DNA from: Chiloscyllium plagiosum
Lineage: Eukaryota
Length of the DNA stretch: 64,000 nt
Reading direction: 5' to 3'
Assembly: GCF_004010195.1 (NCBI RefSeq)
Contig: NC_057718.1
Coordinates: 98,146,876-98,210,875, forward strand
Position numbers and translations under genes: made by a program. How positions within the stretch are numbered: the stretch's first letter is position 1; each line of letters begins with the position of its first letter. The notes under the pieces are model-generated. The model was not told the DNA's origin. It saw only the letters and a program-made list of their open reading frames with translations, and did not search any database. Below, in pieces: positions 9,278-62,980 of the stretch.

Positions 9278-9736
9278 GCTGGAAGTTTTTGTTGTAAGTG
9301 TTTCGTCCCCTGGCTAGGCGACATCATCAGTGCTTGGGAGCCTCCTGCGAAGCGCTTCTTTGATGTTTCCTCCGGTGTTTATAGTGGTCTGTCCCTGCCG
9401 CTTCGGGTTGTCAGTTTCAGCTGTCCGCTGTAATGGTTGGTATATTGGGTCCAGGTCGATGTGTTTGCCTCCAGGTTGACTCCATCAACAAACACATCGA
9501 CCTCGACCCAATATACCAACCACTACAGCGAACAGCTGAAACTGACAACCGGAAGCGGCAGGGACAGACCACTATAAACACCGAAGGAAGCACCAAAGAA
9601 GCGCTTCGCAGGAGGCTCCCAAGCACTGATGATGTCGCCTAGCCAGGGGACGAAACGTTTGCAACAAAAACTTCCAGCTCGGCGAACAGAACCACAACAA
9701 CGAGCACCCGAGCTACAAATCTTCGCACAAACTTTG
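9278..9736. mobile_element. Penelope-like element 3' end with inverted duplication; 13-bp TSD AATAAATGTTTAA
   Basis: Inverted arms 9278-9467 and 9489-9678; encodes SINKHIDLDPIY (C-terminus of PLE GIY-YIG); TSD at 9265-9277 and 9737-9749. Confidence 0.85.
9623..9662 (+). ncRNA. Minimal type I hammerhead ribozyme motif (PLE family 1)
   Basis: GCA-CTGATGA-TGTCGCCTAGCCAGGGGAC-GAAACGTT-TGC: stem I GCA/UGC, intact core, palindromic ACGU stem III. Confidence 0.7.
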
Positions 9737-9904
9737 AATAAATGTTTAAATTGTGCTTAGGTTGATCATTGCAATGAATATTCTGGAATGGTTAAATTGG
9801 TTAGGAAATGTCAGGCTGATTGAAAAACAATGTTTTTTTTCAGAAACAGAGGGTTGGATTCATATTGATGAGTGTCTTGGGATATTTTTCAGTGTTAAAT
9901 TATA

Positions 9905-10470
9905 TATTGGTTAAGCCACTTTTGGAATATTGTGTGCAATTCTGGTCTCCCTGCTATTGGAAGAATGTTGTGGAACTTGAAAGGGCTCAGAAAAGATTTA
10001 CAAGGATGTTACCAGGGTTGGAGGATTTGAACTGCAGGGAGAGGCTGCACAGGCTGGAGTTGTTTTCCCTGGAGTGCCAGAGGCTGAGGGGTGACCTTAG
10101 AGAGATTTATAAAATCATGAGGAGCATGGATAGGGTAAATAGGCGACATCTTTTCCCTGGGGTGGGGGAGTCCAGAACTAGAGGGCATAGGTTTAGACTG
10201 AGAGGGGAAAGATATAAAAGAGACCTAAGGAGCAACGTTTTCACACAGAAGGTGGTGCGTGTAAGGAATGAGCTGCCAGAGGAAGTGGGGTAGGCTGGTA
10301 CAATTACAACATTTAAAAGGCAGCTGGATAGGTATATGAATAGGAAGCGTTTAGATGGATATGTGCTAAATGCTAGTAAATGGGACGAGATTAATTTAGG
10401 GTATCTGGTCAGCATGGACGAGTTGGACCGAAGGGTCTGTTTCCGTGCTGTACATCTCTATGACTCTGTA
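9905..10470 (+). mobile_element. CR1/HER1-type LINE 3' end
   Basis: LVKPLLEYCVQFWSP…RLRGDL motif. Confidence 0.9.
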
Positions 10471-11891
10471 ACTGCAAGTTATCAGTCAGGTTATGCATAA
10501 TATAAATGTACTGGAAGCTTCAGGTCCTTTTCCCTGTCCGGAAGAGAAAAAAAAACGATTGTTATCCAATCAGTTTTTCATGAAGGCTGCACCCCTTTAA
10601 TAATTTAAGAATCTTTAGTGCAAAGGTAATGGTCATCCTTGACTGCACAGTATTTAATGCTGACATCTGTGAGTGCCACCACGGAGGCTTAATGCTCATC
10701 CCTGACCCTGTTTGAGTTTAATTTCTGGTTGTGCTACTTTGGGAGATAGTGAACTCATTCCCTGCCAAGATTCTCTTTGATGACCTTTTGCTGTGCATGC
10801 CATGGTGTGGTCCTTTTCAGACTGGGGCCATCCTTCGTGCTGTGGTATATTTGGCCCCCTATATTGTACCACATGTCTGCACGGCTTAGACAGAATGTCT
10901 GCTTTCGGGCAGTTTGTCTTGCAGCTCATCACCCTTTTTGGTCACTCTATTCCTGCAGCAACGTGTCTAACTAAGCACAAAATATAAAGATCAGCTCAGC
11001 AAAAGAACGCATCGTCATTCTTCGCAACACGTGTGTGAGTTCAGAAACTAACATGCCAGTGGTTTTCTGTAGCCCAGCCACATGTTAATATTGAGACAGA
11101 TGTCTGGAAGTTTACTAACAATTAACTAGATACACCCAACATGACATCTCAGACTTAGATGTGCTGTCCAGGTTACGCGCTTACATAACTACTCCATTCG
11201 CAGTTTTATTCATTCATTCATCAGCAGTCCCTTGTGAATGAGGGTGGCTCTCTCCCACTCTCAGGGTGAGTCCGTAGGAGGCTGTACAGAGGGCTGTGCA
11301 GGCTCTGTTACACTTGGGACAGGTGGTAGTCATGGGGCTTTTGTGTGGCAGCACACTCCTACCGCTGTTTTCCATATGTAGCTTGCTGGATGACTGACTG
11401 ACCAGCTGACTGACTGACTGAACACTTAACTGCAGCATAACTGACCAGAGAGTAAGGTGGTGAACTAGAACCGTCAAATGCCATGATGATATCTTGCTGC
11501 TTTAGTGGGCTGATGCCCCTGTCTAAGATCTGTACATTAACATAACGGGAAGATGTAGCAATACTTAGGGACAATGAGTTGGTGCTTTGTTTTAAAATTT
11601 ATCACGCTGCCTTGAGAGGGGGCAGTGACAATTGACTGAATTAGTGGAGTGGAGAGAAAGTTTTATAAGATTCAGAGGGCTCCCTGTTCCTTTGAAGTAC
11701 CAACGCATTATATTCTTTTGATCAATTCTGAGATACGGCATAATCCTGACCTTCATTGCTGACAAATTGTTAGTTATTATAATTAACCCATGTCCTTAAA
11801 ACTCAATAGAGCAAAATTGCTTTTCACAAGGAGTTGAGTAGTATTGGTCACTGTCAACATTTTCTCATCCCTACTCCTGTCCTTTACCCCA

Positions 11892-12080
11892 AAGTCACAC
11901 GACACCAGGTTATGGTCCAACAGGTTTATTTGAACTCATAAGCGTTCAGAGTGCTGCTCCTTCATCAGATGAAATCACTGACAAAGAAGCTTGTGATTTC
12001 ACATAAACCTGTTGGACTATAACCTGGGGTCATGTGACTTCTGACTTAGTCCGCCCCAGTCCAACATCTGCACCTCCACA
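11892..12080. mobile_element. Short inverted-repeat element (family 4), degenerate hammerhead
   Basis: AAGTCACACGACACCAGGTTATGGTCCAACAGGTTTA … TAAACCTGTTGGACTATAACCTGG…GTGACTT; homologous to 24581-24790. Confidence 0.75.
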
Positions 12081-12250
12081 CCAAAATAGAGGGGGAAATG
12101 AAATGATAACATACGTCAGATTTAATCTTTGCTCTCACTTAACTCTGAGTTCAGTGAGGAAAGAGTGACTAGTGGTCAAAGTTTGAGAGAAGATTTGTAG
12201 CTCGGGTGCTCGTTGTTGTGGTCCTGTTCGCCGAGCTGGGAATTTGTGTT

Positions 12251-12290
12251 GCAGACGTTTCGTCCCCTGTCTAGGTGACATCCTCAGTGC
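12251..12290 (-). ncRNA. Minimal hammerhead motif, inverted twin of 12424-12463
   Basis: Exact reverse complement of the + strand motif. Confidence 0.72.
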
Positions 12291-12423
12291 TTGGGAGCCT
12301 CCTGTGAAGCGCTTCTGTGATCTTTCCTCTGGCATTTGTAGTGGTTTAACCAGAAGCAGCAGATTCAAACCACTACAAATGCCGGAGGAAAGATCACAGA
12401 AGCGCTTCACAGGAGGCTCCCAA

Positions 12424-12463
12424 GCACTGAGGATGTCACCTAGACAGGGGACGAAACGTCTGC
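12424..12463 (+). ncRNA. Minimal type I hammerhead ribozyme motif (PLE family 1)
   Basis: GCA-CTGAGGA-TGTCACCTAGACAGGGGAC-GAAACGTC-TGC; GUC cleavage triplet. Confidence 0.75.
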
Positions 12464-12599
12464 AACACAAATTCCCAGCTCGGCGAACAGAACCACAACA
12501 GTGACTGGTGTTCCTCAAATATTTTCTGTATTTAGACTGATGACCAAGAGGTGTGCATGAGAGGTAAGGGACCCATTTGATTTACTCCACTCCTGTACA

Positions 12600-12942
12600 G
12601 GGCAGCATGGTGGCTCAGTCATTAGCACTGCTGCCACATAGTGCCAGGGACCTGGGTTCAGTTCAAGCCAAGGCTACTTATGTGTGTGGATTTTCCACCT
12701 TCTCCCCGTGTCTGTATGGGTTTCCTTCGGGTGCTCCGGTTTCATCCCTGAGTTCGAAGATGTGCAGCTTAGGGTAGATTGGCCATGCTAAATTGCCCAT
12801 ACTGTCCAGGGATATATAAGTTATTTGGATTAGCCAGGAGAAATGAAGGGTTAAAGGAGTAGGGTAGTGGGGTGAGTCTGGGTGGGATGCTCTTCAGAGT
12901 GTCTGTGTGAACTTGCTTCCACAGTGTAGGGATTCTCTTCTA
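12600..12942 (+). mobile_element. HE1-type SINE
   Basis: tRNA-like head, V-core and tail; ends about 90 bp upstream of the first visible PLCB4 exon. Confidence 0.85.
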
Positions 12943-13029
12943 TGGTTAGATTCTCCACCTGAGGCCTGTTTGGCAAAAGGTTGACCTTATTAAGACTGGT
13001 CACCAACTGGAAACTATTTCTTCCAACAG

Positions 13030-21608: not shown

Positions 21609-23254
21609 TGTTCCTGTGGGACTATTGTTCCATGGGCATATCGGCAGTCATGTTTTCAAGCTGACTGCTTTGTGTGGATACAGTTCAATGCAGTTGCTGT
21701 GTGCCAGCATTTGTTGCTGTGCTGTTGAGCGTTCCCTCAGATGATTGTTTGCAACGGTGGCTGGGCCTGAACTGGAAACCTGGAGACTGGAAGGCTAGAG
21801 CCCTGAGAAAACCAGAGTAAGAGGAGGGACCTAGAAATGGTCCCAACACACTCTCCGCTATTGAAATGCAGAGCATTCAACCCAGACAGTGCAAAGTCGC
21901 ATCATCATTTTGAAAAGCCAGGAATAGCCATAGAGTCATACAGCACAGAAGCAGACCCTTCAGTTCAAACAGTCCATGCCGACCATAATCCCAAACTAAA
22001 CTCGTCCCACCTAGAACATAGAACAACACAGTGCAAAACAGGCCCTTCGGCCCTCAATGTTGCACCGACCTGTGAACTATTCTTAGCTCATCCCCCTACA
22101 CTATCCCATTGTCATCCATGTAGGACCTGCCTGCTCCTGGCCCATTCCCTGCAAACATTTCTTCTTCACGTTCTTATCCAAATGTGTTTTAAATGTTGTA
22201 ACTGTACCCATTTCCTCTGGAAATTCATTCCCCACACAAATTGCTCTCCGTGTTATTAATTGCCCCTCGTGTCTTTTTAAATCTTCTTCACGGTCCATTA
22301 TACCACTGATCGTGGTGTTATCTGCAAACTCACTAACCATGCTCTCTATATTCACATCTAGATCACTTGTACAAATGGCAAACAAAAGTGTACCCAGCAC
22401 TTCCCCCAGTTCTTCAACAATGTTTCAGTATTTATAATAGAAGACACACTTTGTTGGGAAAAACTAGGATTACTGGTTAAAAATTATTAATAGGATTAAT
22501 AGGATGCAATAGGATTAACTTATTTCCAACCTTCCTTTTAATAGCCTGTGATCCTTTCAGTTTAGTCTGCACTGTGATAGCTCTGCTCCTCATTTCTCTG
22601 CTATAATCCTTTAATCGCCTGCTTTTTGCCTTCATCCTTCACATTCAGTCTGACTCCGAGATATGGAAATGCTTTGCTCATCCCTTCTGCCTGATACCTG
22701 GCAGGACACATCAGAGATCCACTCAATCCAGCTTTTGCTCATCCTTGCACTGGAATATTCAGGCGTCTTCAATGTTTTTAACCTTGGCTCTTGCCCTTGG
22801 AATGACGTTGTAGTCCGTGTGTCCTCATCTGTATCATCTTCCCCTTAAAGGGTGTTTACATAATGAGCAAATGCTACGACACACATGACCTCTGAATGCT
22901 GTTGCTTGTTTCTTGATTGCAATGGATGAATACTTCTATTAGAAACGAAAACAAAAGTTGCTGGAAAAGCTCAGCAGGCCTGGCAGCATCTCTAAAGAGA
23001 AATCAGAGTTAATGTTTCAGGTCCAGTGACCCTTCCTCAGCACTGATCGTGGTTAGGCAAATGTTCTTTTTATGCAGAAGATGGGGTGGGGGAAGGGACA
23101 AGGAGTAAATGAAAGGTGGAGATAAAGCCCAACAAGAGTGAAGAATATTTGGGTAGGTGGATAATAATAAGGCCGAGAGGATAAATAACTATTTGTGAGA
23201 ATTGTTAGTGGCTAATAATGTGTAACAAACGATTATGTGATAACAAGGCTTGGT

Positions 23255-23766
23255 TCTGGATGTAGGTTTGCTCGCTGAGCTGAAAAGTTCATTAGCATCT
23301 TCAGTTAACCACCAGATGAAGCACTGATGTCATTTCCTGTGGTGATGTAATTTCCTACGGTGATGCAATTTCCTGTTTTCTTTTCTCAGGGGGTGGTATA
23401 TGGGATCCAAGTCAATGTGTTTGTTGATAGAGCTCTGGTTGGAATGCCATGCTTCTAGGAATTCTCGTGTGTGTCTCTGTTTGGCTTGTCCCAGGATGGA
23501 TGTGTTGTCCCAGTCGAAGTGGTGTCCTTCCTCATCCGTATGTAAGGATACTAAGTGAGAGTGGGTCATGTCTTTTTGTGGCTAGTTGATGTTCATGTAT
23601 CCTGGTGGCTAGTTTTCTGCCTGTTTGTCCAACGCAGTGTTTGTTACAGTTCTTGCAAGGTATTTTGTAAATGACATTAGTTTTGCTTGTTGTCTGTCTA
23701 GGGCCTTTCAAGTTCATTAGCTGCTGTTTTAGTGTGTTGGTGGGTTTGTGGGCTGCCATGACTGAT
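23255..23766 (-). mobile_element. Penelope-like element fragment (GIY-YIG endonuclease, decayed)
   Basis: VIYKIPCKNCNKHCVGQTGRKLATRIHEH … REFLEAWHS … NKHIDLDPIY; 9-bp TSD AGGCTTGGT at 23246-23254 and 23767-23775. Confidence 0.88.
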
Positions 23767-24580
23767 AGGCTTGGTGTGTGGGGGGGGGGTAGGTCAAGGA
23801 CTTGGAGAAGCTCAAGCCCTAAAGTTGTTGAACTCATTATTGAGTCTGGAAGGCTTCAGAGTAATACTTTTATTATGCTGGTTCAGTGGATGGATCTGTG
23901 ACTGTCACAATGCTTGTGCTTGCTCCAGTTCCTGTGGGACTCTCAGCCCATAACATATCTGTGAACATATTTGTAAGCTGTCTCCTTCGTGAGGACACAG
24001 TTCAGTGCAATTGCTGTGTGCCAGCCTTTGTTGCTGTGCTGTTGAGCGTTCCCTCAGAGCAAAGGTGGCTGCGCCTAATTTTGAGACCTGGACCAACAGA
24101 TACGCTTCCAGTAATGGAGGCTACAGAAAGGTCTTATCACCAATACTGGTCTTCAGATAGATCCACGACTCCTGCAGCATTGGGCAAAAGCCGATGGCCC
24201 TTTGGAAGACTTCTCCCTGGAAACACACTCCCACCACCATCACCAAACAGCTTACTTGGCACATTCCATGGATTATTAAATAACACTTGCATCATAATCA
24301 GGAATGAGTGTTTGACTGGTGAGGGAATAGGTAACATAGGCTCATGCAGAATGCTAAATTGAGACAAAATCTTAGGCTCATTATATCTCCTTGACAATTT
24401 AGAGATAACATATTTTGCAAAGCTTTCAACAAAAAATGAATCACTTTGCGTATCTTACTATTGAGTATGTTGCACTGAAGTTGATCAAGGTGTGTGATAG
24501 AAGAAATAGGGGATTGAAAGTTCTTGCGACTAGTCAGGGGCTGCATACCCTCTCTTAACTCCACAGCCATAACCTCCAAT

Positions 24581-24790
24581 GTTAAAAATCACACAACACC
24601 AGGTTTTAGTCCAACAGGTTTAATTGGAAGCACGAGCTTTCGGAGCACTGCTCCTTCATCAGGTGGTTGCCTTCAGGCAGTGCTCCAAAAGCTAGTGCTT
24701 CTAATTAAACCTGTAGGACTATAACCTGGTGCTGTGTGATTTTTAACTTTGTACACCCCAGTCCAACACCGACATCTCCAAATCATATTC
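24581..24790. mobile_element. Short inverted-repeat element (family 4) carrying a hammerhead
   Basis: Inverted arms about 24581-24652 and 24677-24747, plus a short unpaired tail. Confidence 0.8.
24631..24665 (-). ncRNA. Minimal type I hammerhead ribozyme motif (family 4, AGCU palindrome)
   Basis: Minus strand reads CAC-CTGATGA-A-GGAGC AGT GCTCC-GAAAGCTC-GTG: stems I and II pair fully. Confidence 0.75.
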
Positions 24791-26368: not shown

Positions 26369-26468
26369 GATTTTCCTGCTCCTCGGATGCTGCCTGAACT
26401 GCTGTGCTTTTCCAGCACCACTCTAATCCAGAATCTGGTTTCCAGCATCTGCAGTCATTGTTTTTACC
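26369..26468 (+). mobile_element. Family-2 short element lacking the ribozyme core
   Basis: Starts GATTTTCCTGCTCC, ends TTTTTACC; flanked by TAAG on both sides. Confidence 0.75.
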
Positions 26469-27263
26469 TAAGAAGTCTCACAGACAATCAAATACTAAAA
26501 CAAGGAATTTAACTTCATGTAGCAACCAAAATAAGATCCTGCCCAATAAACAAGTTAAGCCGCACAACTCAACTTAGTTACACCTGATTAGTGGTGAAGT
26601 CTGGCCAGGATTCCAACCACAGTGTCTGTCTCTAAAAGAGTCCAGTGTTCAATCCTCTTGCAGTGCTGTTCTTTGAAGTTCTGCTGCTGACTAGTTCTGG
26701 TGTTGGATTCTTTTACAGATCTTTTTTGTTCTTCAAGTCTACATGTGATATTATTGACAATTCTTTACATTCTTTCATCCAAATTATTGACTGTGCCTCT
26801 GACACCATCAAGGCTGCAGCGTATGTTATCAGAATTCTTGTTCCTTGTTACATTTGGCATTGACTGTCTGTTTGAAGACACAGCTTTCCTGCAGTTAATT
26901 CCTTCAGGTCTTCTACAGGACAATCACTTGTCCTTGTGGTATAAAGCAGCCAGTTATAGAGCAGGTATGAAAATAGTTTTATTCATGTACCTTCTACTCT
27001 TTCTCCCAGAGGTGGCTAATTGCTCTCAGTTCCTGTATAGGTTTGTCCTTGTCCCTAAATAGTTTATTACAGAGTTAGTGCTGCTTCTTTCAATCTAGTA
27101 ACAGTTATTTCATTTCCGAAGTTTACACAATCATAGTGCATTATACATTAGCAAAAAGTTATTAAATATGTTTGTGTGTGACTGCTTTAAAAAGCAAGTG
27201 ACATTGACAGATCTCTTCCCCTATTGCTGATGTTTTAAAAAAATCTCAGTGGCTTAGTGGTAG

Positions 27264-27583
27264 GGACGGCACGGTGGCTCAGTGGTTAGCACTGAGGCCT
27301 CACAGCGGCAGGGACCTGAGTTTGATTCCTGCCTCGGGTGACTGTCTGTGCGGAATTTGCAATTTCCCCATCTTCATGTGGGTTATCTCCCACAGTCCAA
27401 AGATGTGCAGGTTGGGTGAATTGGCCATGCTAAATTGCCCACGGTGTTCAGGGATGTGTAAGTTAGGTGCATTGGTCAGGGGTAAATATAGGGTAAGGGA
27501 ATGGGGCTGGGTGGGATACTCTTCAGAAGGTCGGTGTGGACTTGTTGGGCTGAAGGGCTTGTTCCCACCCTGTAGGGATCCTA
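27264..27583 (+). mobile_element. HE1-type SINE
   Basis: Head, core and tail. Confidence 0.85.
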
Positions 27584-28522: not shown

Positions 28523-28860
28523 GGGTGGCATGCTGGCTCAGAGGTTAGCACTGCTGCCTCACAGCACCAGGGACCCAGGTTAGATTCTATCCTTGGGTGA
28601 CTGTCTGTATGGAGTTTGCACTATCTCCCCTGTGTGGGTTTCCTCCAAGTGCTCCGGTTTCCTCCCATAGTTCAAAGATGTGCAGGTTAGATGGATTGGC
28701 CATTGGAAATTGCCCATAGTGTCGAGGAATGTGCGTGTTGGGTGGACTGATCATGGGGAATGCAAGGTGATGGAGTGGATCTGTTTGGGCTGCTCTTCGG
28801 AACGTCAGTGTGGACTCAGTGGGCTGAATGGTCTGCTTCCACACTGTTGGGATTCTATGA
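28523..28860 (+). mobile_element. HE1-type SINE
   Basis: Head, core and tail. Confidence 0.85.
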
Positions 28861-30840: not shown

Positions 30841-31195
30841 GGACGCTGCCTGTCCCTAATTATATTGATGTTGAGAGTGTGATGCTGGAAAAGCACAGCA
30901 GGTCAGGGAGCATCCAAGGAGCAGGAGAATCGACATTTCGGGCTTCCTAAGATCCAAATGGTCATTTTAGTTTGATGCCTTGTGATTTTATGTCACTCTT
31001 TTCAGTTATAAATAGCAGTTATGTTAATATTATACTGGGCTGTGCATGGCAATATTATGGTACTTATATTTCCCCTGGAATCCACCTCACTACTGAGCGT
31101 TTTTGGGATTTTGGCTTCAAGTTGAGCATTTCTGAACTTCCTATTCTCTTTTTCAGACTTGATAATTAATCTCAATATTTCTCCCTTCCTTTCAG

Positions 31196-31608: not shown

Positions 31609-31642
31609 TTCCTGAAGAAGGGCTCATGCCCGAAACGTCGAT
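31609..31642 (+). ncRNA. Minimal hammerhead motif (family 2)
   Basis: TC-CTGAAGA-A-GGGC TCAT GCCC-GAAACGTC-GA; stem I is short. Confidence 0.65.
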
Positions 31643-31785
31643 TCTCCTGCTCCTTGGATACTGCCTGACCTGCTGCGCTTTTCCAGCAACGCATTTTCGG
31701 CTCGGATTTTCTGTTAAGTCCGCTCCCCGTTTAGGAGATGAGGAAGCAGCACACCACGCATGAGCCCTGCACAACCTCCCATCCG

Positions 31786-32517: not shown

Positions 32518-32679
<162 letters not shown>

Positions 32680-36224: not shown

Positions 36225-36543
36225 AGTCCTTTGAGTATAGGAGTTGGAAAGTCATGTTCAGGTTGTACAGGACATTGGTGAGGCCTCTTCTGGAATACTG
36301 TGTCCAGTTCTACTATAGGAGAAAGTGAGGACAGCAGATGCTGGAGATCAGAGCTGAAAATGTGTTGCTGGAAAAGTGCAGCAGGTCAGGCAGCATCCAA
36401 GGAGCAGGAGAATCCATGTTTTGGGCATGAGCCCGAAGAAGGGCTCATCCCCGAAACGTCGATTCTCCTGCTCCTTGGATGCTGCCTGACCTGCTGCGCT
36501 TTTCTAGCAACACATTTTCAGCTCCAGTTCTACTATAGGAAGG

Positions 36544-38925: not shown

Positions 38926-39616
38926 GTAAGTTGAGAGTCATTTGGAATTGGTCGCATGACTATTTATGAACCAGAGTTGAAGACAGGTCACTCATACAAA
39001 AGAATTAGAGCAGACCCATATGGAAAGTATCACGCTTAATAACAGATTACTTGCTACTATTTATCTGGACCATGCTTCATCTGAAACCTCTTAACTAAAT
39101 GGTGCGTTACACTGTTAATCCATTTACTGTCATCATTGTGACCATGCCAGTTATATTAAAACAGTAGCTTAATTAAATCCTTTGCAGAAATAATTAGGAT
39201 GTTCTTTGTAACTAGTATAGCACAGAGAGCTCCTGGAATCATTTTGCATCTGCTGGACTTGCAGCATTTGAAATCTAACCTGCTCAATTCAATAAAACAT
39301 TAACTTGATTAGTAAACATTTGAAAAGTCTTGGGGAATGTTTTGGCTTTGGGGTGAATCTGATCAAGCTGAATAAAAGTGATAATTGTCAGTATACTGCA
39401 ATTGGATGTGAAGCTGTGCACAGTCTGAAATGTGAGAAAAGGGAATCACTAGATGTTAAACAAATGCATTTCAACTGTTTATTCAGAGTGGGCCATCATC
39501 TTATGTATGAAGGGCCAAACCAGCATAGCCTGCACACACACCTCAAAAAACTGTCATCGCTCAATTCCATCTTCACTAAACTTCCAGGATCAATCATTCC
39601 TTCTCATTTGACCTTA

Positions 39617-42702: not shown

Positions 42703-43000
42703 GGGCAGCACAGGGGCTCAGTGGTTAACACTGCTGCCTCACAACGCCAGGGACCTGGGTTTGATTCTACCTCCAGGCAAATGTCTGTGTGGAATTTGCA
42801 CATTCTCCCCCTATCTGTATGGGTTTTTGTTGGGTGCTGTGGTTTCCTCCCACAGTCCAAATATGTGCAGGCAAGGAGGGTTAGCAATGGGAAATGCAAA
42901 GCTAGGGTAGGTGGTTAAGTCTGGGTGGGATGCAGTTTGGAGGGTCAGTGTGGATTCAGTGATGGGCTGAATGGCCTGCTTCCACACTGTCGGGATTGTA
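42703..43000 (+). mobile_element. HE1-type SINE
   Basis: Head, core and tail. Confidence 0.83.
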
Positions 43001-43904: not shown

Positions 43905-44822
43905 TATTTCTAAATCAGGACAGTGAGTAACTTGGAGGAGAACTTGCAGGTGATGCCCTTGTCCTTCTGGATGGTCGTGGTGGGCTTGGAAGGGGTTGTG
44001 AATTTCAACAACGCATCTTGTAGATGGTTCACACTGAGTGCTGGTGGTGGAGGGCGTGAATGTTTGTGGATGTGATGCCCAAGAAGCAGGCTGCTTTATC
44101 CTAGATGGTGTAAAGCTTCTTGAGTGTTGTTGGAGCTGTACCCATCCAGGCAAACAGGGAGTATTCCATCACACTCCTGACTTGTAGATGGCAGACAGGC
44201 TCTGCGGAGTCAGGAGGTGAGTTAGTCACTGCAGGATTCCTAGCCTTTGAGCACAGTATTTATATGGCTGCTCCAGTTCAATTTCTAGTCAATAGTAGCC
44301 ACTGTCCCCCACTCCAGGATTTTGTTGGAGTGAAGGAAACAGAATGGAAACTGAGGGGGTGATCATTCCCGCTTCCACCCTTACCATCTTAGATCATCCA
44401 GTCAAGAAAGAGTCTGATGGTCATTCAGTAGCTGTCTAATGGGAAGAAGCCAGTTCGAGGGGTGGGGTGGGGTGGGACTGTAGGCCAGGAACATCCCAGG
44501 GCAGGGACGATACTGTGAGCAGTAAATTGATAATAGACTAAAAGGCCTCTGCTCCCTGAATGTCTCTGTTCATTTTTGTTATTACGATCTTAATAAAAGC
44601 TCAAAAAATGAGTTTGAAGAACCACAAAGACATTGCCACGTTCCTCCAACAGAATTTGTTGCTTCTTTGAAGCCAGCGTTTGGGGCCTTTTCCTCCAGCC
44701 TGGTGTTACCCCATCATGGCTCTCACAAAACATACGCCAAGCCTTTTCACAGGCGGCGCCAAGAAAATGCAGGCAGTCAGAAAGGTTCTGACGATTGGGT
44801 GACTTGTAATCAGTAATGGCAA

Positions 44823-45160
44823 CAAAATTGAAAATTACTGGGGAAAATGCAGCAGGTCTGGCAGCATCTGTGGAGAGAGAGTGGAGTTAATGTTTCAGGT
44901 CCAGTGACCCTTCTTCAGAAGAGGCGGTTTTTGATTTTGTTTCTGTTCTTGGTTTAATGTTATAATGGCGAGTGAGCTGCAGGTTTACTATTTAGTTGAC
45001 TCGCATTCTACAATTTGGAAGACTTGTGCAATGACGCCCATTGTCAATCCAACTTCCTTCTGAGGAAAGGTTACTCGACCTGAAACGTTAACTCTGATTT
45101 CTCTCCACAGCTGCTGCCAGACCTGCTGAGCTTTTCTAGCTCTTTCTGTTTCTGTATTTT
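44823..45160. mobile_element. Family-3 elements in inverted arrangement
   Basis: Minus copy about 44823-44920 and plus copy about 45058-45160; homologous to 22943-23045 (-), 55473-55600 (+) and 56690-56790 (+). Confidence 0.72.
45058..45091 (+). ncRNA. Minimal hammerhead motif (family 3)
   Basis: TT-CTGAGGA-A-AGGTT ACTC GACCT-GAAACGTT-AA. Confidence 0.6.
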
Positions 45161-48766: not shown

Positions 48767-49464
48767 GTAAGCAACCTCCTATCTCAGCTTCCTCCAGTAA
48801 ATAGGGTTCGGGTGACTGTGGAATGAATCTAATCTGCTTGTTTTTAAACTATTCAATCATTTTACAAGCACTAAGTTTCTGGTTAACCTTATTCTTGTTC
48901 ATGTTCCTTCTAAGACTTAAAAGCATCTGATGTATATGACATTGGCGGAGGGTCCTCAGAGTGGGAGAATTGTCTATCAAACGCTTAAACCTTTCAAAGC
49001 AATTCCCACATAAATAGAAACACTAGGCATTCCGCAGTGTCTCAGAGCACATCTCCAGTTTTACATCTGATCCCCAACAATTCCAGAAACTGGAAGACCC
49101 AGCCCATTTCTTTTGATGACTTTTTGATGCCATTTTCCGGCTATATAGGCGATTTTTCCGTACCTGTATTGCAAACTGTATCAGATAAGCTACACAAGTA
49201 CAATCACATTGGTAATTAATGCAGCCACATGATGAAACCTTAAGGCTAGCTGCCACCTAGTGGATTCCAAATTAAATTGTCTGCATAAACCACAATTTTT
49301 ATGGCATTCTCTTCTAACATCTCGTCTCCTCTGCACAATATACGTACCGTTGCAAAAGGTACCTACCACCAACTCGGTAACATCACTCACTCATAACCCT
49401 ACAGCAGCCCATCTCCCTTATCAATGTCCCTGTCCCCTCCAGATTGGCTGGTTCCATTCCTTTG

Positions 49465-49702
49465 GCAGAAGTGGGTACTGCAGATGCTGGAGATTAGAGT
49501 CATGGTGAGAGTGGTGCTGGAAAAGCACAGAAGGTCAGGCAGCATCCGAGGAGCAGGAGAGTCGACGTTTCAGGCAAAAGCCCTTCATCAGGGCTCATTC
49601 CTCATTCCTGATGAAGGGCTTTTGCCCGAAATGTCGATTTTTCCTGCTCCTCGGATGCTGCCTGACCTGCTGTGCTTTTCCAGCACCACACTAATCTTGA
49701 TC
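49465..49702. mobile_element. Family-2 inverted element
   Basis: GTGGTGCTGGAAAAGCACAG… / …CTGTGCTTTTCCAGCACCAC inverted arms. Confidence 0.82.
49562..49637. ncRNA. Divergent pair of minimal hammerhead motifs (family 2)
   Basis: Minus strand: CTGATGA-AGGGCTTTTGCCT-GAAACGTC-GA. Plus strand from 49608: CTGATGA-AGGGCTTTTGCCC-GAAATGTC-GA. Confidence 0.65.
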
Positions 49703-50444: not shown

Positions 50445-50643
50445 CGAAAGTGAGGATGGCAGATGCTGGAGAGTCAGAGTCGAAAAGTGTGGCACTGGAA
50501 AAGCACAACATGTCAGGCAGCATCTGTGGAGCAGGTGAGTCGACGAGTCGGGCATAAGCCCTTCGTCAGGAACCCGAAACCTCGACTCTCCTGCTCCTCG
50601 GATGCCGCCTTGTCTGCTGTTTTTCCAGCACCGCACTTTTCGA
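50445..50643. mobile_element. Family-2 inverted element, degenerate hammerheads
   Basis: Inverted arms; flanking duplication ACCA(T/C)CCTGACTTGG. Confidence 0.78.
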
Positions 50644-52977: not shown

Positions 52978-54657
52978 AGAACGGCCAATGGGGAACTTTA
53001 AACCACTGTCTGCCGATAAACAACAAATATGGACCAAATACTGAACTACAGAAGCAATCATCCCAACACCCACAAACGAAGCTGCATTAGAACATTATTC
53101 CAACAAGCCACCAAACACTGTAGCACAGAGGAACTATGAAGAGCAGAGGAAAACCAACTATACAGTGTATTCCAAAAGAACGAGTGCCCAAAGAATACAA
53201 TCTCAACAACAAACCCAAACAAGCAGACAAAACACACCTAGAAACCCTAGCTACGCTCCCCAACATCAAAGATATGTCAGAAATGACTGCCAGACTACTC
53301 AAACCTCTGGGCATCATGGTAGCCCACTGTCACAAAACAGGTACTTTTTTCTAAAAGCAGTTCCTTTTCTCAAAGATACCGTATCCTTGTTTTATTTTCA
53401 GAGGGATTGTAAAACAGTCCAGGCTCTGAATCGGCTGGTTTGGTACAGAGATGGAAGGGTTTACTGAGAGGCCTTTTTGCTTATACAAAAACAGATGAGA
53501 CTTTAGGCCAAAGCTTTCATGTTTTAGATGAAGGTCTTTTGCCCGAAACGTCGATTTTCCTGCTCCTTGGATGCTGCCTGAACTGCTGTGCTTTTCCAGC
53601 ACCACTCTAATCTAAACTCTGGTTTCCAGCATCTGCAGTCATTGTTTTTACCTATGTTTTAGAAGTGGCCTGTATAATACAGGGGTGTGGTCAGTCCTGG
53701 AAGCTGAATTCTTATACTGAGTTCACTTCAGCTGTGTGGAAACAGGCTGCTGAACTCTTTCTCTTTCTGCCCTTCTAACTTTGACTTGTAAGCCTCTGTT
53801 TCAGTTTTACTCTATGTTTAAGGGGTTTGTGTATTAGGACTGTTGTGTGTATTCAGAACAGCATAATTACATCTCGTTTGGATAGACTGAGTTCTGTGGG
53901 TATTCTATATTCTGTTCCTTGTATTTTATTCCGTAATTTTGTGAATAAATTTTTGTTTGTTTTAAAACCTGTTAGTCAACCTAGCTAACTTACTCAAGGT
54001 AATTTTCACTGTACACTTACTGAAAAGTTATGGTCTGGACTGCCTACTTAAGAATGTTTTGAGTGGTTTGGCCTAGTCCATAGAACCACAAACCTACCAA
54101 CACACTAAAACAGCAGTTAATGAACTTAAAAGACCCAATACAGACAACAAGCAAAACTAATGTTGTCTACAAAAATACTGTGCAAGAACTGTAACAAACA
54201 CTACATTGGACAAACAGGCAGTAAACTAGCCACCAGGATACATGAACATCAACTAGCCACAAAAAGACATGATCCACTCTCACTAGTATCCTTTCATACA
54301 GATGAGGAAGGACACCATTTTGACTGGGACAACACATCCATCCTGGGACAAGCCAAACAGAGACACGCACGAGAATTCCTTGAAGCATGGCATTCCAACC
54401 GGAACTCTTTCAACAAACACATTGATTTGGACCCCGTCTACCATCCTCTGAGAAAAAGAACTGGAAATGATATCACCAACCCAAGGAAACCTAAACACAT
54501 AGATAGAAAGTGGGACATAACACCAGCACTTCACCAGAGGCTCACTGATGATGTTACCTAGTATGATGATAAAACATCTAAAAATGAACCTTCCAGCTCA
54601 GTGAGCTAACTTACATCCAGAACCTCAACCTGAGCTACAAATATTCGTAAACTCACT
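52978..54657 (+). mobile_element. Penelope-like element (RT thumb/linker + GIY-YIG, decayed), split by an insertion
   Basis: LNYRSNHPNTHKRSCIRTLF … LLKPLGIMVAH | KPTNTLKQQL … KHYIGQTGSKLATRIHEH … NKHIDLDPVY; degenerate hammerhead at about 54542-54580. Confidence 0.88.
53328..54085 (+). mobile_element. Probable solo LTR
   Basis: Starts TGTCAC, ends CATAGAA (possibly a decayed …CA end); 4-bp TSD CCAC; AATAAA at 53944; interrupts the PLE reading frame cleanly. Confidence 0.6.
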
Positions 54658-55688
54658 AATTGATCCGAGAGATGAGGGGTTTGTTTTATGAAGAGAGATT
54701 GAACAGTTTAGGCCTATACTCTCTGGAATTTAGAAGAATGAGGGGAGATCAGATTGAGGTATTCAAGATGATAAAAGGTGTGGATAAAATGAACATGGAA
54801 CGGATGCTTCCACTTGTGGGGCATTCTAGGATGAGAGGTCAAAATCTTAGGATAAGGGATAGCAAATTTAAAACAGAGTTGAGGGGAAACTACTTCTCCC
54901 AAAGGGTTGTGAATTTGTGGCATTCCCTACCCCAAAGTGCGGTGGTTGCTGGGACAGTGAGTAAATTTAAGGAGAAGTTAGACAGCTTTTAATGTGTTGA
55001 AAGGATATGGAGAGAAGGCAGGAAAATGAGGATGAGGAACATATCAGAAATGATCTAATGGTGGTGCAGACCTGAGGGGCCGAATGGCTTAATTCTGCTT
55101 CTGTATCTTATGAACTAATAATAGGTCTGAGCAGCACTGAGGGTTAGTGGGATCTTGGCGTGTGGGTTCAATAGATCTTTGAAGGCAATAGGACAGGTGG
55201 ATGAGGTGGTTGATAACACATTTGGGATACTAGTCTTTGCTCATCTTGACAATGAACACAAGAAGTGGGAGGTTATGGTGGGGCTGTACAGCTAGCGTAC
55301 TACATGCAGTTCTGGTCACCTCCCCCCCCACCACACCCCGCCATAGGAAAGTTGGATTGCACTTGAGAGAGTTTAGGGGAGATTAGCAGGCAGGAGGGAC
55401 TCGTTTGGTTTGGAATTATGTTCAGCGTGGACTGGTCGGACCGAAGGGTCTGTTTCCATGCTGTATGACTCCATGAAGAAGGGTCACCAGACTCAAAACA
55501 TTAACTCTGTTTCTCTCTTCACAGACACTGCTAGACCTGCTGAGTTTCTGCAGCAATTTTTCTTTATGTTTCAGATCGTCAATATCTGCAGTTTTCTGTT
55601 TAATTTTACCAAGTTGTCACCTGGACAAATCAGCAATGAAGAGAGACTGATAGGCTGGGGTTGTTTTCCTTAGAGCAGAGAAGGCTAA

Positions 55689-56278: not shown

Positions 56279-56489
56279 CCAGTATGTCATGCGACGGGTT
56301 CTGTAGCTACCTGATGTCCGATGAAAATGCGCCTGTCTTCCTTGATCGCTTGGACCTGTACCAGGAGATGGATCAGCCCCTGTCCCATTACTTTATCAGT
56401 TCCTCACACAATACGTATCTCACAGGCAGGCAGTTCGGTGGCAAATCCTCTGTCGAGATGTACAGACAAGTTCTTTTATCAGGCTGCAG
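56279..56489 (+). CDS. PLCB4: PLCB4 exon, end of EF-hands and start of catalytic X box (…[40 protein letters not shown])
   Basis: ttttgcag acceptor, GTTTGT donor, 211 nt; contains the SSHNTYL catalytic motif. Confidence 0.98.
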
Positions 56490-56689: not shown

Positions 56690-56729
56690 GAGTTCTGAAG
56701 AAGGGTCACTGGACCTGAAACGTTAACTC
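56690..56729 (+). ncRNA. Minimal type I hammerhead ribozyme motif (family 3)
   Basis: GAGTT-CTGAAGA-AGGGTCACTGGACCT-GAAACGTT-AACTC: 5-bp stem I, intact core. Confidence 0.72.
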
Positions 56730-59368
56730 TGCTTTCTCTGACAGATGCTGCCAGACCTACTGAGCTTTTCCAGCAATTTCCATTTTTGTTTTAGATCTCC
56801 TGTGGACCTTTGGGATTCTTTCTTGGGCTGGGTTTGTGCTTCTGTCTCATAAAATTGGTGTCGTTGAGCTCAGTATCCTCCAACTCTCCAACCCCGTGCA
56901 ACTCTCCCGACTGCCACCTCCACAGCCCTTCTGCCCAGAATACACTTCATGTCCTGGGGGTGCTGTCCCAAAGAAGCTCCCAGGATGCAATGATTTGGAA
57001 TGTCTGTCATCATAGGTCCCATCTGGTTGATCTTCCCAGAGGGTGTGTGTGTTTGTCTTCCAGTTTGAGGGGTTCTGCACTTCATCTCCCCCCACCCTCC
57101 CCCCATCAACTCTCTTGCCAATTCTCAGGAACAAGACTTCACTGACCATGGAGTCCCAGGATGAGGAGAGAGAGAGGAGAAAGAGGGAAGAAAGAGTAAG
57201 AGATAAGGATGAAGTCAGTGAATGGTAAAGGAGGTAGATGAGGGCAAATAAAGACTAAAAGCGAAACAACTGTTTAAACAAACATCCAGCATAAATATTC
57301 TTTAATTTTCTTCACACCCTTGTGTTTTCAATCTTCATCCTCTCATCCTGGTAGCTGTTTTTCAAACTTTGATCACTCTTCGTAGCATTTGCTAAATTTC
57401 CCTCCCTCAACTCGGCTTGCATTCATATATTTTTTGACTGTGTTCTCCCATATCAGCCTGATTCGCTCTGGCTGAGTCTTTGCTTATTGTATTAACTTGA
57501 AAGCGGCAAAGTGGCACAGTGGTTAGCACTGCTGCCTCACAGGGCCAGAGACCCGGGTTCTCCACCACACTCTCGACCCTGATCTCCACCACACTCTCGA
57601 CCCTGATCTCCACCACACTCTCAACTCTGATCTCCAGCATCTGCAATCCTCACTTTCTTCTCGTTAGAAAGAGGCCAATTTTTTTCAAAGATTATTCATT
57701 TGTCAGGATAAACTAAAATATAATCAGCCCTATCTGAAGTGGAAGACATTTAAATCTGCGTTTGCTGTGTTGACTGGCGTCAGTTGGCTAGGCAGCTGGT
57801 TTGCAATACAGCGTGATGCTAATAGTATGGGTTCAATTCCTGCTCCAGCTTAGGTTACTATGGGGGTTTCTCCTTAATCTCCCCCTCACCTGTGGTACGG
57901 CGACCCTCACATTAAACCACCAGCAGTCATCTCTCTCTTTAATGAGTGAGCAGCCCTCTAATAGGCTAAGACTATGATAACTTTATTCATTTAATACTCT
58001 ACAATATTTAATATATCTGGAAGATTTATTGACAATTTTTAGTCTGTCTTTACGTAATGTCTACATCCGCATTCATGTTGTAGTAATCACCAAATATCCA
58101 GCAAATGCAATTACATTGTTTTATTTGCCTGAGACACTTGATGGGACAGTAGCACAAATGATGATGACATGAACACACACATTTGTGTTATCAGAGTCCG
58201 TAACCTAACCATTTGATCAGTAGCATAAGCACAATGCTGAACTCTAGCTGCTGCACTTTCTGTATGGTGCAGTCTTGTTGACCCTCTGAGTGTTTTTTTT
58301 AATTCCTCGTGGACTGAACCACGGAGTTAAGGCACTGCTGTGAATTGTATTTTAGCAGATGTTCTGAAGCTGCTAAATCACCTTGCCTATCAGTGCTCAT
58401 CACTGAATGGATGACAGCCTGAAAAATACTGCCCTTGAAAGAACAACAGCTGTTGTGCATTGTAAATTATGCATTCACAAAGCACCTTGGGAATAGTAGC
58501 ATAGCTTAAGGGCAAGGACTTTTGGTGTGCTTGGCAAGGAATCTGCAACATGGGAGTTTATGGATAAAATCTATAATTTGAGGGATAAGAATTATGATTA
58601 ATGGATATGGCTTTGGTTCTCTGCTTGATGTCAGTCAGACCAGTTATGAAAATTCTGGCTGTATGAAATGGCAGGCTAGTTTTATGGATTATGACAGTTG
58701 TGTTAATATAAATGCTAAATCAGTGCAATTTCCGCTTTCCTTAAATTAGACAAACAGGCATTATCTCCCACAGCAAGTGGTGATTTGTCTTAAATGTTCA
58801 CTGTGATTGTTAATAATTTTAATGAATAAAACCTCCCTTCAGTTGTTGCCTTTGGTCTCAGAAATGTTTGTGATACCTCAGGTGGGATAGTGTGCAGTTG
58901 AAATTGCCCTCTGCAATTTGTGAAATTAGCATATTCCTATCAAATTCTGTTCTGCTCTATTGCAACACAATTGTTAGCCTATTTTGAGCTGAAAAAGTTC
59001 AAGTTAAAGAATGGGTTAAAACAGATGCTGACACACTGTGCATTGGATAATGACTGCTGTTTCAGGCTTAAGGAAGCCAGAAATCTGCCTTGATCCATTT
59101 AATTTTCACTTTTTGGTTTTATTATCAATCATATTTTGTGCATTCAGATGCAAGTTATGCATTAATGATTAACATGGGGCTCTTTTAGCCCACATTCAAT
59201 AAATACTATTAACATGTAATTTTGGCTGATTAATATGTTGGTGGTGAACTGAGACACAAATTGCTCAGTGTCTGTTGTGCAGCATTTTGGGTAGCATTTA
59301 TTCAGAACAGAACTCCATTTATTATGAATGAACATTACATATGTTGTATCTTCGGAGCTGTTCATTAA

Positions 59369-59566
<198 letters not shown>

Positions 59567-59964: not shown

Positions 59965-60300
59965 GAAGGCTGTGGCCTAGTGGTGTTATTGCTGAACAGT
60001 TAATCCGCAGACCCAGGTGATGTTCTGGGGACCTGGGTTCAAATCCCATCATGACATTTGACTTCGACCAAAGAAAATCTGGAATGAAGAGTCTAATGAT
60101 GACCAAGAAGACATTGCTGGTTATCAGGAGAAAACATTGAGTTCACTAATATCCTTTAGGGAAGGAAACTGCTATCCTCACCTGGTCTGGCCTACATGTG
60201 ACTCCAGACTCTCAGCAATGTGGTTAACTCTGGGTAATTAGGTATGGGCAATAAATGCTGTCCTGGCCAGTGATGTCCTCATCCCATCAATAAATTTTTA
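59965..60300 (+). mobile_element. Second tRNA-derived SINE family (same as 37645-38000)
   Basis: GTGGCCTAGTGG box A, GGTTCAAATCC box B, same core. Confidence 0.65.
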
Positions 60301-60439
60301 AAAAACTGTTATTGTTTATTTCGTCACTCTTTGTGGAATCATGCTGTGTAAAAATGAGCTGCTGTACGTTTTATGTTCCAACAATGATCATGCTTCAAAG
60401 GTACCTCATTGTTGCCAATTATAACACACTGAGATCATG

Positions 60440-62770
60440 AAATAGAAAATAGGAGTAGACCATTCAGCCCTTCGAGCCTGATACGCAATTCAGTATGATC
60501 ATGGCTGATCATCCAACTCAATAGCCTGTTCTTGCTTTCTCGCCATATCCTTTTTAGCCTCAAATGCCATATCCAACTCCTTGAAATTATACAATGTTTG
60601 GCCTCGACTGCTTTCTATGACAGTAAATTCCACAGACTCACCGCTCTTTGGGTGAAGAAATTTCTCCTCATCTTGGTCCTAAATACTACACTCTATATCC
60701 TTAAACTGTGGCCCCGATCATTAGGAATATCCTTTTTGCATCTACCCTGTTACGTGAGAGAAATTAAAGTCTTTTTTTTAAGTCAATTCACCTAAATCAT
60801 GGTCATAGAGATGTACAGCACGGAAACAGACCCTTCAGTCCAACTCGTCCTTGCTGACCAGATATCCTAAACTAATCTAGTCCCGTATGCCAGCACTCGG
60901 ACCATATCCCTCTAAACCCTTCCTATTCATATACCCATCCAGGTGCCTTTTAAATGTTGTAACTGTACCAGCCTCCACCACTTCCTCTGGCAGCTCATTC
61001 CATACATGCACCACCCTCTGCATGAAAAAGTTGCCCCTTAAGTCCCTTTTAAATTTTCCCCCTCTCATCCTAAACTGATGCCCTCTAGTTGAGTAGAATA
61101 TCAAAATTAAAGATCAAAAATAAAAAGTTGTAAGGTAAAAGTTCACTTGCCTCAGTGATAATTCATGATCGGGCATGACAAATTTAAAACGTTACCATGG
61201 GAGTGTTTTGTTCTGGATTGCCCATTTAATTATTAATCCAGTTGTCTCAGTAAATGTACAAACTTTAGATAGTATAGTTTTCCCATCGATCACAGGGTCA
61301 TTTCTCAAATAATGCTTAATTTCAATTGCTTAGATTTGTGTCAACAAAAACCAACTTGACTTTCCAAATGTTGCATTCGAATTTTGCAGAGCGATTAGTC
61401 ATTGAGTCATACAGCATGAAAACAGACCCTCCACTCCAATCAGTCCATGCCAAACGGAATCCCATACAAACCTAGTCCCATCTCCTTGCTCCTGGTCCAT
61501 ATCCCTCCACACCTTTCCTATTCATCAACCTATCCAAACGTATTTTAAACATTGCAATTGTGCCCACCTCCGCCATAGAGTCATAGAGATGTACAGTACG
61601 GAAATAGATCCTTCGGTTCAACTCATCCATGCTGACCAGATATCCTAAACTAATCCAGTCCCATTTGCCAGCACTTGGCCCTAATCCCTTTAAAGCCTTC
61701 CTATTCACGTACTCATCCACAAGTTTTTTTAAGTGTTGTAATTGTACCCGCCTCCACCACTTCCTCGGGCAGCTCATTCCATACACGCACCATCCTTTGC
61801 ATGAAAACGTTGCCCCTTAAGTCCCTTTTAAATTTTCCCCTCTCACCCTAAACCTATCCACTCTCATTCTGGACTCCCCCAATTCAGGGAAAAGACCTTG
61901 TCTAATTACCCTATCCATGCTCCTCATGATTTTATTAAACCTCTATAAGGATACCCCTCAGCCTCCGACGCTCCAGGGAAAACAGGCCCAGTCTGTTCAG
62001 CCTCATCCTATAGCTCAAACCCTCCAACCCTGGTAACATCCTTGTAAATCTTTTCTGAACTCTTTAAGTTGCACAACATCCTTCCTATAGGAGGGAGACC
62101 AGAATTGCATGCAATATTCCAAAAGTGGCCTAACCAATGTCCTGTACAGACACAACATGATCTCCCATGATACTCACTGCTCTGACCAATAAAGGAAAGC
62201 ATACCAAACGCCTTCTTCACTATCCTATCTACCTGAGACTCCACTTTCAAGGAGCTATGAACCTGCACTCCAAGGTCTCTTTGTTCAGCAACACTCCCCA
62301 GGACCTTACCACTTCCTTAGGAAGTTCATTCCACACACAAACCACCATCTTTGTAAAAAAACAATTGCCCCTTTCTTCACTATCCTATCTACCTGAGACT
62401 CCACTTTCAAGGAGCTATGAACCTGCACTCCAAGGTCTCTTTGTCCAGCAACACTCCCCAGGACCTTACCACTTAGGAAGTTCATTCCACGCACAAACCA
62501 CCATCTTTGTAAAAAAACAATTGCCCCTCATGTCTTTTTTAAATCTCTCTTCTCACACCTTAACAATATACCCCCAGCCTTGAAATCCCCCATCCTAGTG
62601 AGAAGGCAATGACCATTAACTCTATTTATACCCCTCATTTTTTTTATAAACTTCTATAAGGTCATAACCTCCTATGAAAAATCCCCAGCCTTTCTTTGTA
62701 ATTCAAACCTTCCAAACCCAGCAACATCCTGGTAAATCTCTTCTGAACCCTCTCCAGCTTAATCTTGTCT
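60440..62770 (-). mobile_element. Cluster of CR1/HER1-type LINE 3' ends
   Basis: Several stacked minus-strand copies (RGNFFMQRVVHVWNELP; VKKAFGMLSFIG). Confidence 0.85.
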
Positions 62771-62891
62771 CCACTACCCTCTCAAGCAGCATGTTCCAAA
62801 TACCCACCGCCTTCTGAGGAACAAGAGATCCTCAAATTTCCTCTAAAGCCCGTGTTTCTCACTTTAGACTTGTGCTTTCTGGTCTTAATGG

Positions 62892-62980
62892 GGATGAAGG
62901 GCTTTTGTCCGAAACGTCGATTTCGCTGCTCCTTGGATGCTGCCTGAACTGCTGTGCTCTTCCAGCACCACTAATCCAGA
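62892..62980 (+). mobile_element. Family-2 short element, 5'-truncated within the hammerhead core
   Basis: GATGAAGGGCTTTTGTCCGAAACGTCGA…CCAGCACCACTAATCCAGA. Confidence 0.72.

Follow-up and report, generated by a model that had tools for sequence, protein, structure and literature searches.

Hammerhead motifs of four Penelope-like element families in a shark genome, with short copies that probably record the front of an uncut RNA

Minimal type I hammerhead ribozymes and the Penelope-like elements (PLEs) that host them are already known from the available text of PMC4209133, which counts about 4,000 such motifs in the coelacanth and about 9,000 in Xenopus, and in which cartilaginous fish are absent from Table S1 and from the Fig. 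S3 list. For PAc, the Poseidon element of Anolis, the accessible part of PMC11167929 describes two internal reverse transcriptase (RT) start sites that bound an optional tail, extension of both strands, uncut RNA as the main template and a hammerhead that is dispensable for insertion in vitro, and Drosophila Penelope is described with a TATA-less internal promoter and an intron before the motif (PMC2377424, in part). Very young, abundant families of such elements allow the ends of copies to be counted. Here, we analyse a 64,000-nt stretch of the Chiloscyllium plagiosum genome (contig NC_057718.1, positions 98,146,876 to 98,210,875; the window), together with the genome at large and sequencing runs of related organisms, and describe four families of hammerhead-bearing repeats, which are a further lineage record of the known motif and hosts. 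We consider it probable that these motifs lie in the 3' pseudo-long terminal repeats (pseudo-LTRs) of four PLE families and that the short copies, or stubs, of families 2-4 are DNA of the uncut front of the element RNA. What is new, next to a copy number at least ten times the published coelacanth and frog figures, is that about half of the copies of families 2-4 start at the 5' edge of the ribozyme, 30-40 nt behind a TATA box or a box in the TATA position, together with a family-4 poly(A) site ahead of the RT start sites, an excess of pairs with one tail and a fifth family with a U3-A8 core. Searches of the open-access literature listed no paper that treats hammerheads of shark PLEs or proposes a strong-stop model for this group, and names for the families may already exist in Dfam or Repbase.

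Positions within a motif are numbered from the C of CUGA, which is 0, and the first base 3' of the predicted cut is then +34, +28, +30 and +29 in families 1 to 4. A strict descriptor (CUGANGA, a helix II of at least 3 bp and GAAA-NN-UH) found 11 matches in the window, against a mean of 0.125 and a maximum of 1 in 40 order-1 Markov sequences, none of which held a strict match with a palindromic helix III. Six matches lie on the plus strand (9626, 12427, 31612, 45060, 49608 and 56695) and five on the minus strand (12287, 23040, 24662, 44918 and 49591), and the scan recovered every site for which an earlier note on this DNA had claimed a shared hammerhead architecture. The same note held helix III to be always a 4-nt palindrome, which is so in just 8 of the 11; the others (49608, 44918 and 23040) carry TG or CA, consistent with CpG decay, a pattern also present among the 132 strict matches of the sample blocks described below (CG 79, GC 15, CA/TG 30). 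Its account of the stems stands in part: the 5-bp helix I of family 3, GAGUU/AACUC, is present at 56695, the best-formed motif of the window, and missing at 45060, where the copy begins at -2; helix II of family 1, given as GUC/GAC, is really 5-6 bp long with a mismatch in young subfamilies; and the family-4 copy at 24631 is real but lies on the minus strand and has C17 rather than the usual A17, found in 15 of the 18 family-4 strict copies in the sample blocks. Across the four families pair 10.1-11.1 is in the majority G-C (210/257, 28/51, 37/83 and 88/113) with G-U second, an extra base between 9 and 10.1 accompanies G10.1-C11.1, and helix I in most family-2 subfamilies consists of 2 bp, a mismatch and 1 bp. 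An Rfam search returned no hammerhead match at E<=1. Judged by their sequence, with core, extra base, palindromic loopless helix III and covarying helices, the window motifs are minimal type I hammerheads. With those described in PMC4209133, as far as its available text goes, they share the type I form without loop III, palindromic positions 15.2-16.2, the extra base 9/10.1 with G10.1-C11.1, a short helix I, several families per genome, a U3-A8 core variant, a preponderance of single motifs from truncated elements and opposite-strand pairs 100-700 bp apart; unlike in that text, copy ends and poly(A) are analysed here.

The claim that stems differ between families but stay paired is upheld by covariation both within family 1 and across families. 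Among 51 copies of family 1, pair 3 of helix I is U-A in 23, G-C in 14 and C-G in 8; from family 1 to family 4, pair 1 of helix I reads A-U, C-G, U-A and C-G, and helix III pairs are C-G or G-C, so that the pairs of helices I and III vary by family yet remain Watson-Crick; these tallies count copies, not independent events. A fifth family, not among the window's strict matches, has a U3-A8 covariant core, a change known from Schistosoma (PMC4209133, in part), and was missed by the CUGANGA descriptor because of that core. It has 1,020 genome matches, with A8 in 98 of 100 among the matches listed, and four of the five copies sampled carry U3; it was located at loci L030 and L183 and in blocks C1:1.0-1.2 Mb, C20:20.0-20.2 Mb and C2:3.0-3.2 Mb, and has a palindromic AGCU helix I and a tail resembling those of families 2 and 3. 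The covariation of helices and core therefore suggests that the master elements were likely under selection for the hammerhead core.

That the motifs belong to PLEs, as had been proposed, is seen in longer copies, which adjoin GIY-YIG endonuclease or RT frames, and we regard it as highly probable from such junctions that all four families represent the 3' pseudo-LTRs of 5'-truncated PLEs. The attachment of family 1 to GIY-YIG sequence is visible in the window itself, where frame 54130-54561 (Pfam GIY-YIG, E=0.0066, under the curated cut-off) enters a decayed motif at 54545; elsewhere family 1 has an RT match (Pfam RVT_1, 6e-8) and, in the translations of L004 and L005, a GIY-YIG domain without a linker zinc finger. 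Family 2 has a GIY-YIG match (3e-5) with the linker, its endonuclease end being observed and its RT not; family 3 shows similarity to the RT end and the endonuclease; and family 4 matches Pfam GIY-YIG at 8e-5. A CX2-5CxxC linker precedes GIY-YIG in the translations of families 2, 3 and 4, and such a linker occurs in Neptune and Nematis and not in Poseidon (PMC8557442, in part). By this criterion family 1 is Poseidon-type because its GIY-YIG lacks the linker zinc finger, and families 2-4 are Neptune/Nematis-type because they have it, an assignment made by linker rather than by RT phylogeny and one that takes Neptune and Nematis together. The earlier description of families 2-4 as PLE termini or retrozyme-like non-coding retroelements thus holds in its first half and fails in its second, since copies join coding sequence. 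A near full-length family-4 element at locus L323 carries a pseudo-LTR with TATA box and motif, the tail, an ATG, RT motifs and a second pseudo-LTR; its 229-bp direct pseudo-LTRs are 94% alike around the RT frame, the endonuclease having been lost by internal deletion, and it is longer than one unit, the front repeat extending to -142. Direct pseudo-LTRs around a frame were seen at this family-4 locus and none were seen for families 1-3; the other three of the four candidate loci (L324, L325 and L326) were rejected as full-length elements.

Comparison with PAc separates family 1 from the others. The endonuclease frame of family 1 terminates inside loop II and another frame apparently starts at the base of helix II, the latter as in PAc, whereas families 2-4 have the zinc finger in the RT-endonuclease linker and the family-4 ATG of L323 lies about 120 nt past the core, directly behind the tail (PMC11167929, in part). 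In the window the overlap of the family-1 ribozyme with the endonuclease stop and the apparent start of the next frame is found at 9626-9645 and 54545-54561, and because of it the family-1 ribozyme would be under coding constraint too. The best named RT matches of family 1 are from flatworms (Opisthorchis 48%, Sparganum 42%, in a search limited to longer proteins), and its motif (window 9623-9665 and 12424-12465; L010) is close to motifs of Clonorchis sinensis in Fig. S3 of PMC4209133, available in part. This likeness in sequence could reflect shared lineage or an old transfer; horizontal transfer from flatworms was rejected as a conclusion, the Opisthorchis RT at 48% being too distant to show it.

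Heavy amplification, the last part of the earlier proposal, is confirmed by exact-pattern searches of the 3.56-Gb genome, which gave 18,467, 80,723, 709 and 18,482 matches for families 1 to 4, or 118,381 in sum, with none for reversed-pattern controls; the family-2 tail pattern alone has 141,306. The window and seven 200-kb blocks chosen by hand, together 1.36 Mb of non-N sequence, hold 132 strict matches (80, 18, 17 and 7 in families 2, 4, 1 and 3, plus 10 others). The blocks hold 11-32 each, so the window's 11 are unexceptional, and the density extrapolates to about 345,000 motifs genome-wide, a rough figure given the choice by hand and the position of five blocks no more than about 5 Mb from the start of a contig. 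Most copies are broken and are likely inert, genome-wide debris. The insertion hallmarks of endonuclease-bearing PLEs are all present, namely 5' truncation, an inverted 5' copy, an optional 30-40 bp tail and target duplications of variable length; the first three, with the tail often at one end only, are also reported for other PLE clades, and in contrast to the available text of those reports (PMC8557442, PMC3846280) the structures are counted here over hundreds of copies.

The ends of these copies carry the argument that family 2-4 stubs copy the front end of the element RNA, which we hold to be likely. The 5' starts were measured by anchoring on the tail, which introduces no 5'-end bias, after setting aside any copy whose break held N; choosing the best of several references moves inferred starts a few bases leftward. 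Starts fall within -8 to +10 in 101/210 copies of family 2, 33/51 of family 3 and 28/58 of family 4 (51/123, 26/42 and 10/29 for solo copies alone), at 3.8-6.0% per base, where most other bins have 0-1% and a shoulder at -30 to -9 has 1.7-3.0%. Genome-wide, three foreign bases stand at -8 to -6 in 19,676 intact family-2 cores, a filter that passes just part of the short copies, as against 28,854 that match exactly through -8, and by hand tally 60 of 100 among the matches listed start at -4 or -3, many of them inversion joints with microhomology. Among the 5' loose ends in three runs from related organisms, -4 has the best support (131/2,017 aligned reads of run X21). Neither this pile-up nor polyadenylation ahead of the start sites is reported for PAc in the accessible part of PMC11167929.

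The pile-up might instead be a by-product, with no transcription start behind it, if RT aborts at a folded or protein-bound ribozyme or if microhomology draws the junctions together. The breadth of the peak fits such an origin, as do the many listed junctions formed by way of TTC/GAA complementarity within the motif, the roughly 16 in 100 listed short copies that are fold-back joints using helix I, the presence of a TATA box without a pile-up in family 1 and the tandem multi-copy RNA that has been proposed as a template (PMC11167929, in part). A structural block, however, should halt RT on reaching the fold from its 3' side (+19 to +32), and starts there occur at the background rate (0.5-0.9% per base), solo copies without an inverted partner peak alike, and same-strand neighbours within 900 bp are few (13/364 copies); we consider this origin unlikely, though to be taken seriously.

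Upstream of the starts, long copies have a TATA box at a fixed place, at about -35 in family 3 (8/11), -40 in family 4 (24/28, where one upstream control window also scored TATA in 13/28) and -50 in family 1 (22/24), and family 2 has a conserved TTATCT at about -35, the usual TATA place. Families 2 and 3 are presumably initiator-like, with A at -4. A TATA box with an initiator in the pseudo-LTR is also described for Adineta (PMC3846280, in part). The start near -4 that is common to many copies, their target duplications and a family-2 subfamily with a CCTGTG loop for which the sample holds no long copy would also suit a second alternative, that families 2-4 are independent, short, non-autonomous elements of the SINE (short interspersed nuclear element) or retrozyme kind, existing as units or circles of about 100-130 nt. 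We judge this very improbable: the upstream TATA is missing from the stubs, stubs share loop subfamilies with copies that extend into the endonuclease, and retrozymes are tandem repeats (Li 2026 preprint, in part), whereas the present copies are dispersed or head-to-head. Animal non-LTR retrozymes do resemble them in having type I hammerheads related to PLE pseudo-LTRs, but in the available text of bioRxiv 10.64898/2026.07.22.740005 they form tandem units with at least two motifs, of mean 363 bp in one chondrichthyan; membership of that group was rejected, given the 13/364 same-strand neighbours and the joins to coding sequence.

At the other side of the motif there is no excess of starts at the predicted cut. 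Family-2 starts at +28 number 4/210, the bin +27 to +30 (0.78% per base) equals its neighbours, and family 3 has 1/51 and family 4 0/58 starts at the site; solo family-2 copies reach 1.35% in this bin against 0.6-0.7%, from 6 events only. A genome search for family-2 starts at +23 to +33 gave 5,239 matches, and a hand tally of 100 among the matches listed, with 9 carrying indels set aside, left 4-6 clean starts at +28 and 5-9 at each position from +29 to +32, an apparent excess at +28 being made up of about 5 fold-back joints and 4 deletions sharing the letters GA(A/T)T. A fossil of cleavage at the cut site thus finds no support in the copy ends, though a small excess may exist; nor do RNA reads give a cut-site signal. 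Because the site has no clear excess of copy starts, the templates would have been mostly uncut. In the fold-back joints, about 16 of 100 listed family-2 short copies, an inverted arm ending at -1 to -5 is joined at +28 to +34 through helix I complementarity.

The 3' ends fall into two classes about 35 nt apart in families 1, 2 and 4 (in family 2, 51/156 at +85 to +99 and 72/156 at +120 to +134), which corresponds to the known optional tail and, in PMC11167929 (in part), to the two RT start sites. Paired copies are head-to-head in 67 cases and tail-to-tail in 7, and exactly one tail is present in 57 of the 67, where about 33 would be expected if the two ends were independent. We infer that one-tail pairs arise from a single event that primes both target strands, one per start site; self-priming on an antisense template, the reading of inverted pairs in PMC3846280 (in part), may fit the present pair data too. 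Shared flank words of at least 9 were found at 22/96 solo stubs and 2/96 controls.

Evidence on RNA comes from runs of related organisms. In the RNA run X21, A-tails terminate 839 of the 2,909 aligned reads at +57/+60 of family 4, ahead of both RT start sites; A(A/T)TAAA stands at +38/+40 in 87/115 copies, with the A-tails 12-15 nt downstream, and in the DNA-type runs used for comparison such A-tails are not among the best-supported loose ends. Run X22 has no reads on family 2. The family-4 poly(A) signal (window 24621-24615 on the minus strand; L096:1541-1561) works in the related species, so that sense copies of the family might truncate host transcripts; in the window the intact copy lies antisense to its host gene.

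Several observations weigh against a transcription start as the source of the stubs. The peak is broad (-8 to +10, with a family-2 shoulder to -15), and many junctions use microhomology within the motif, which could by itself focus breakpoints. Family 1, with the clearest TATA, has only 5/35 starts at -8 to +10 and falls outside the stub pattern. A canonical TATA is found in 0/10 long copies of family 2, TATA conservation elsewhere is by descent because copies within a family are not independent, and the family-4 TATA predicts a start near -9, where most stubs begin at -4 or -3. An extra G at -5, a possible copy of the cap, shows no excess (13/54, several being inversion joints, and 7/24). The poly(A) evidence comes from one related-organism sample and family 4 only, at about 2% of the run, and the polyadenylated X21 RNAs may be host transcripts that use an inserted family-4 copy; a poly(A) signal before +60 is near-absent in families 1-3 (1/53, 0/253 and 1/82), and in the RNA runs there is no site where many molecules begin or end.

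If the stubs are copies of the RNA front, transcription would start in the pseudo-LTR, at about -4 in families 2 and 3 and between -9 and -3 in family 4, so that the RNA would open with the ribozyme. The element protein would nick both target strands and prime at two internal sites, at about +87 and +125, such as are established for the anole element (PMC11167929, in part), and priming in the front pseudo-LTR would reach the RNA 5' end after about 90-130 nt, giving a stub; a one-tailed pair would come from two such events joined head-to-head. Long copies, L323 included, would need a template with start sites 3' of the coding frame, for which the candidates are read-through tandem RNA or end-joined RNA, with the ribozyme pair as the likely joiner. 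Two terminal motifs, dimerised through their palindrome, would be well placed to join RNA ends (cf. the circles in PMC4209133, available in part), and cleavage, dimeric or protein-assisted, is predicted by analogy.

A more tentative extension, which we think rather doubtful, is that the Neptune-type pseudo-LTR is laid out like a retroviral U3-R-U5 and that long copies require end-joining of the RNA by the ribozyme. The order would be the TATA box, a terminal repeat with the hammerhead, to which family 4 adds the poly(A) signal, and the two RT start sites, so that a unit-length RNA would have start sites only at its front. The 90-130 bp stubs, about half of insertions, would then be integrated cDNAs akin to 'strong-stop' products, and the ends could be joined either by dimeric hammerhead cleavage and ligation to a circle or by a jump between paired ribozymes. 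Copy-end counts give a direct test of whether the ribozyme joins RNA ends for full-length copies, and, were this so, the ratio of stubs to long copies would be a fossil gauge of such joining in vivo.

The window lies within a phospholipase C-beta gene, of which an exon with the start of the X domain is found at approximately 56284..56481 on the plus strand (Pfam PI-PLC-X 1e-19; PDB PLC-beta matches), making plus the sense strand; we take the paralog to be beta-4 (PLCB4). To speak of ribozymes seeded through its introns, as the earlier note did, overstates function, the copies being genome-wide debris. Some copies might be host-relevant ribozymes that cut the phospholipase pre-mRNA, and two solo sense copies, 31612 and 56695, do have an intact core. 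The gene is, however, neither enriched in motifs nor biased as to their strand (6 sense, 5 antisense), minimum-energy modelling gives no hammerhead fold for the 56695 monomer, the sense motifs at 9626, 12427 and 49608 are in such models fully paired to their inverted arms as long hairpins, 45060 likewise having an inverted partner, and monomers are uncleaved in vitro (PMC4209133, in part), which together make this extremely unlikely. Any effect of the motifs on the host gene is by the same modelling unlikely, because partnered motifs would be sequestered in hairpins and 31612 and 56695 are solo monomers. The head-to-head pairs at 9277-9679 and 12214-12500 form near-perfect hairpins of 130-190 bp, microRNA-like in Rfam below threshold, and such pairs, in their tens of thousands, would yield double-stranded RNA in large amounts.

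The insertions of the window illustrate these structures, with target duplications of 11-19 bp that enclose both arms of head-to-head pairs. The Poseidon-type family 1 is represented by a head-to-head insertion at 9278..9735 (14-bp duplication), with the endonuclease frame's end, a TATA box and the intact motif 9626-9659 in the plus arm and a decayed motif at 9330 in the minus arm, and by a second at 12175..12499 (11-bp duplication) with intact motifs at 12427 (plus) and 12287 (minus) and a tail on the minus arm alone. An older subfamily at 54100..54656 (plus) runs from the GIY-YIG frame through the decayed motif at 54545 to the tail, and a GIY-YIG fragment at 23252..23737 (minus) has its ribozyme deleted.

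Family 2 has a solo stub from -3 at 31609..31697 (plus; 14-bp duplication) with an intact core at 31612 and a predicted cut after 31639, and head-to-head pairs at 36321..36521 (mutated core at 36433; 19-bp duplication), 49460..49700 (motifs 49591, minus, and 49608, plus, with CpG-type changes in both) and 50445..50642 (decayed motif at 50569, minus; 15-bp duplication). Further solo stubs lie on the plus strand at 53526..53653, with a tail and a truncated core, and at 62893..62980, from +2; other stubs start exactly at the predicted cut site (+28; 26369..26470, plus) and within helix II (+16; 30860..30943, minus). Family 3 comprises a head-to-head pair at 44821..45158, whose motifs 44918 (minus) and 45060 (plus) both begin at -2, a solo stub from -4 at 56691..56792 (plus; core 56695, predicted cut after 56724), a longer copy with upstream pseudo-LTR sequence at 22943..23250 (minus; motif 23040) and a decayed stub at 55474..55577 (plus). 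Family 4 is present as a head-to-head pair at 24577..24785, with an intact motif at 24662 (minus; predicted cut after 24634) and a plus arm that begins at +11 and carries the tail, and as an older pair at 11891..12080, whose motif at 11968 (minus) has one core change.

Just 3' of the ribozyme, family 2, family 3 and the fifth family have in common a conserved, ATG-containing tail motif (45107-45140, 49651-49685 and 56741-56775), preceded in family 3 by a stretch like a branch point and pyrimidine tract that ends in CAG; the motif might serve for RT binding, as a short frame or as a splice acceptor. Other repeats in the window are tRNA-like SINEs or 3' ends of long interspersed nuclear elements, at 4395-4711, 12600-12911, 27264-27578, 28523-28852 and 42703-42954, and further at 4718-5281, 9906-10464 and 60802-61090, which we take to be of the shark HE1/HER1 type. 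A tandem satellite of 32-bp units occupies 39500-41400, with about 46 units in register and a diverged second block.

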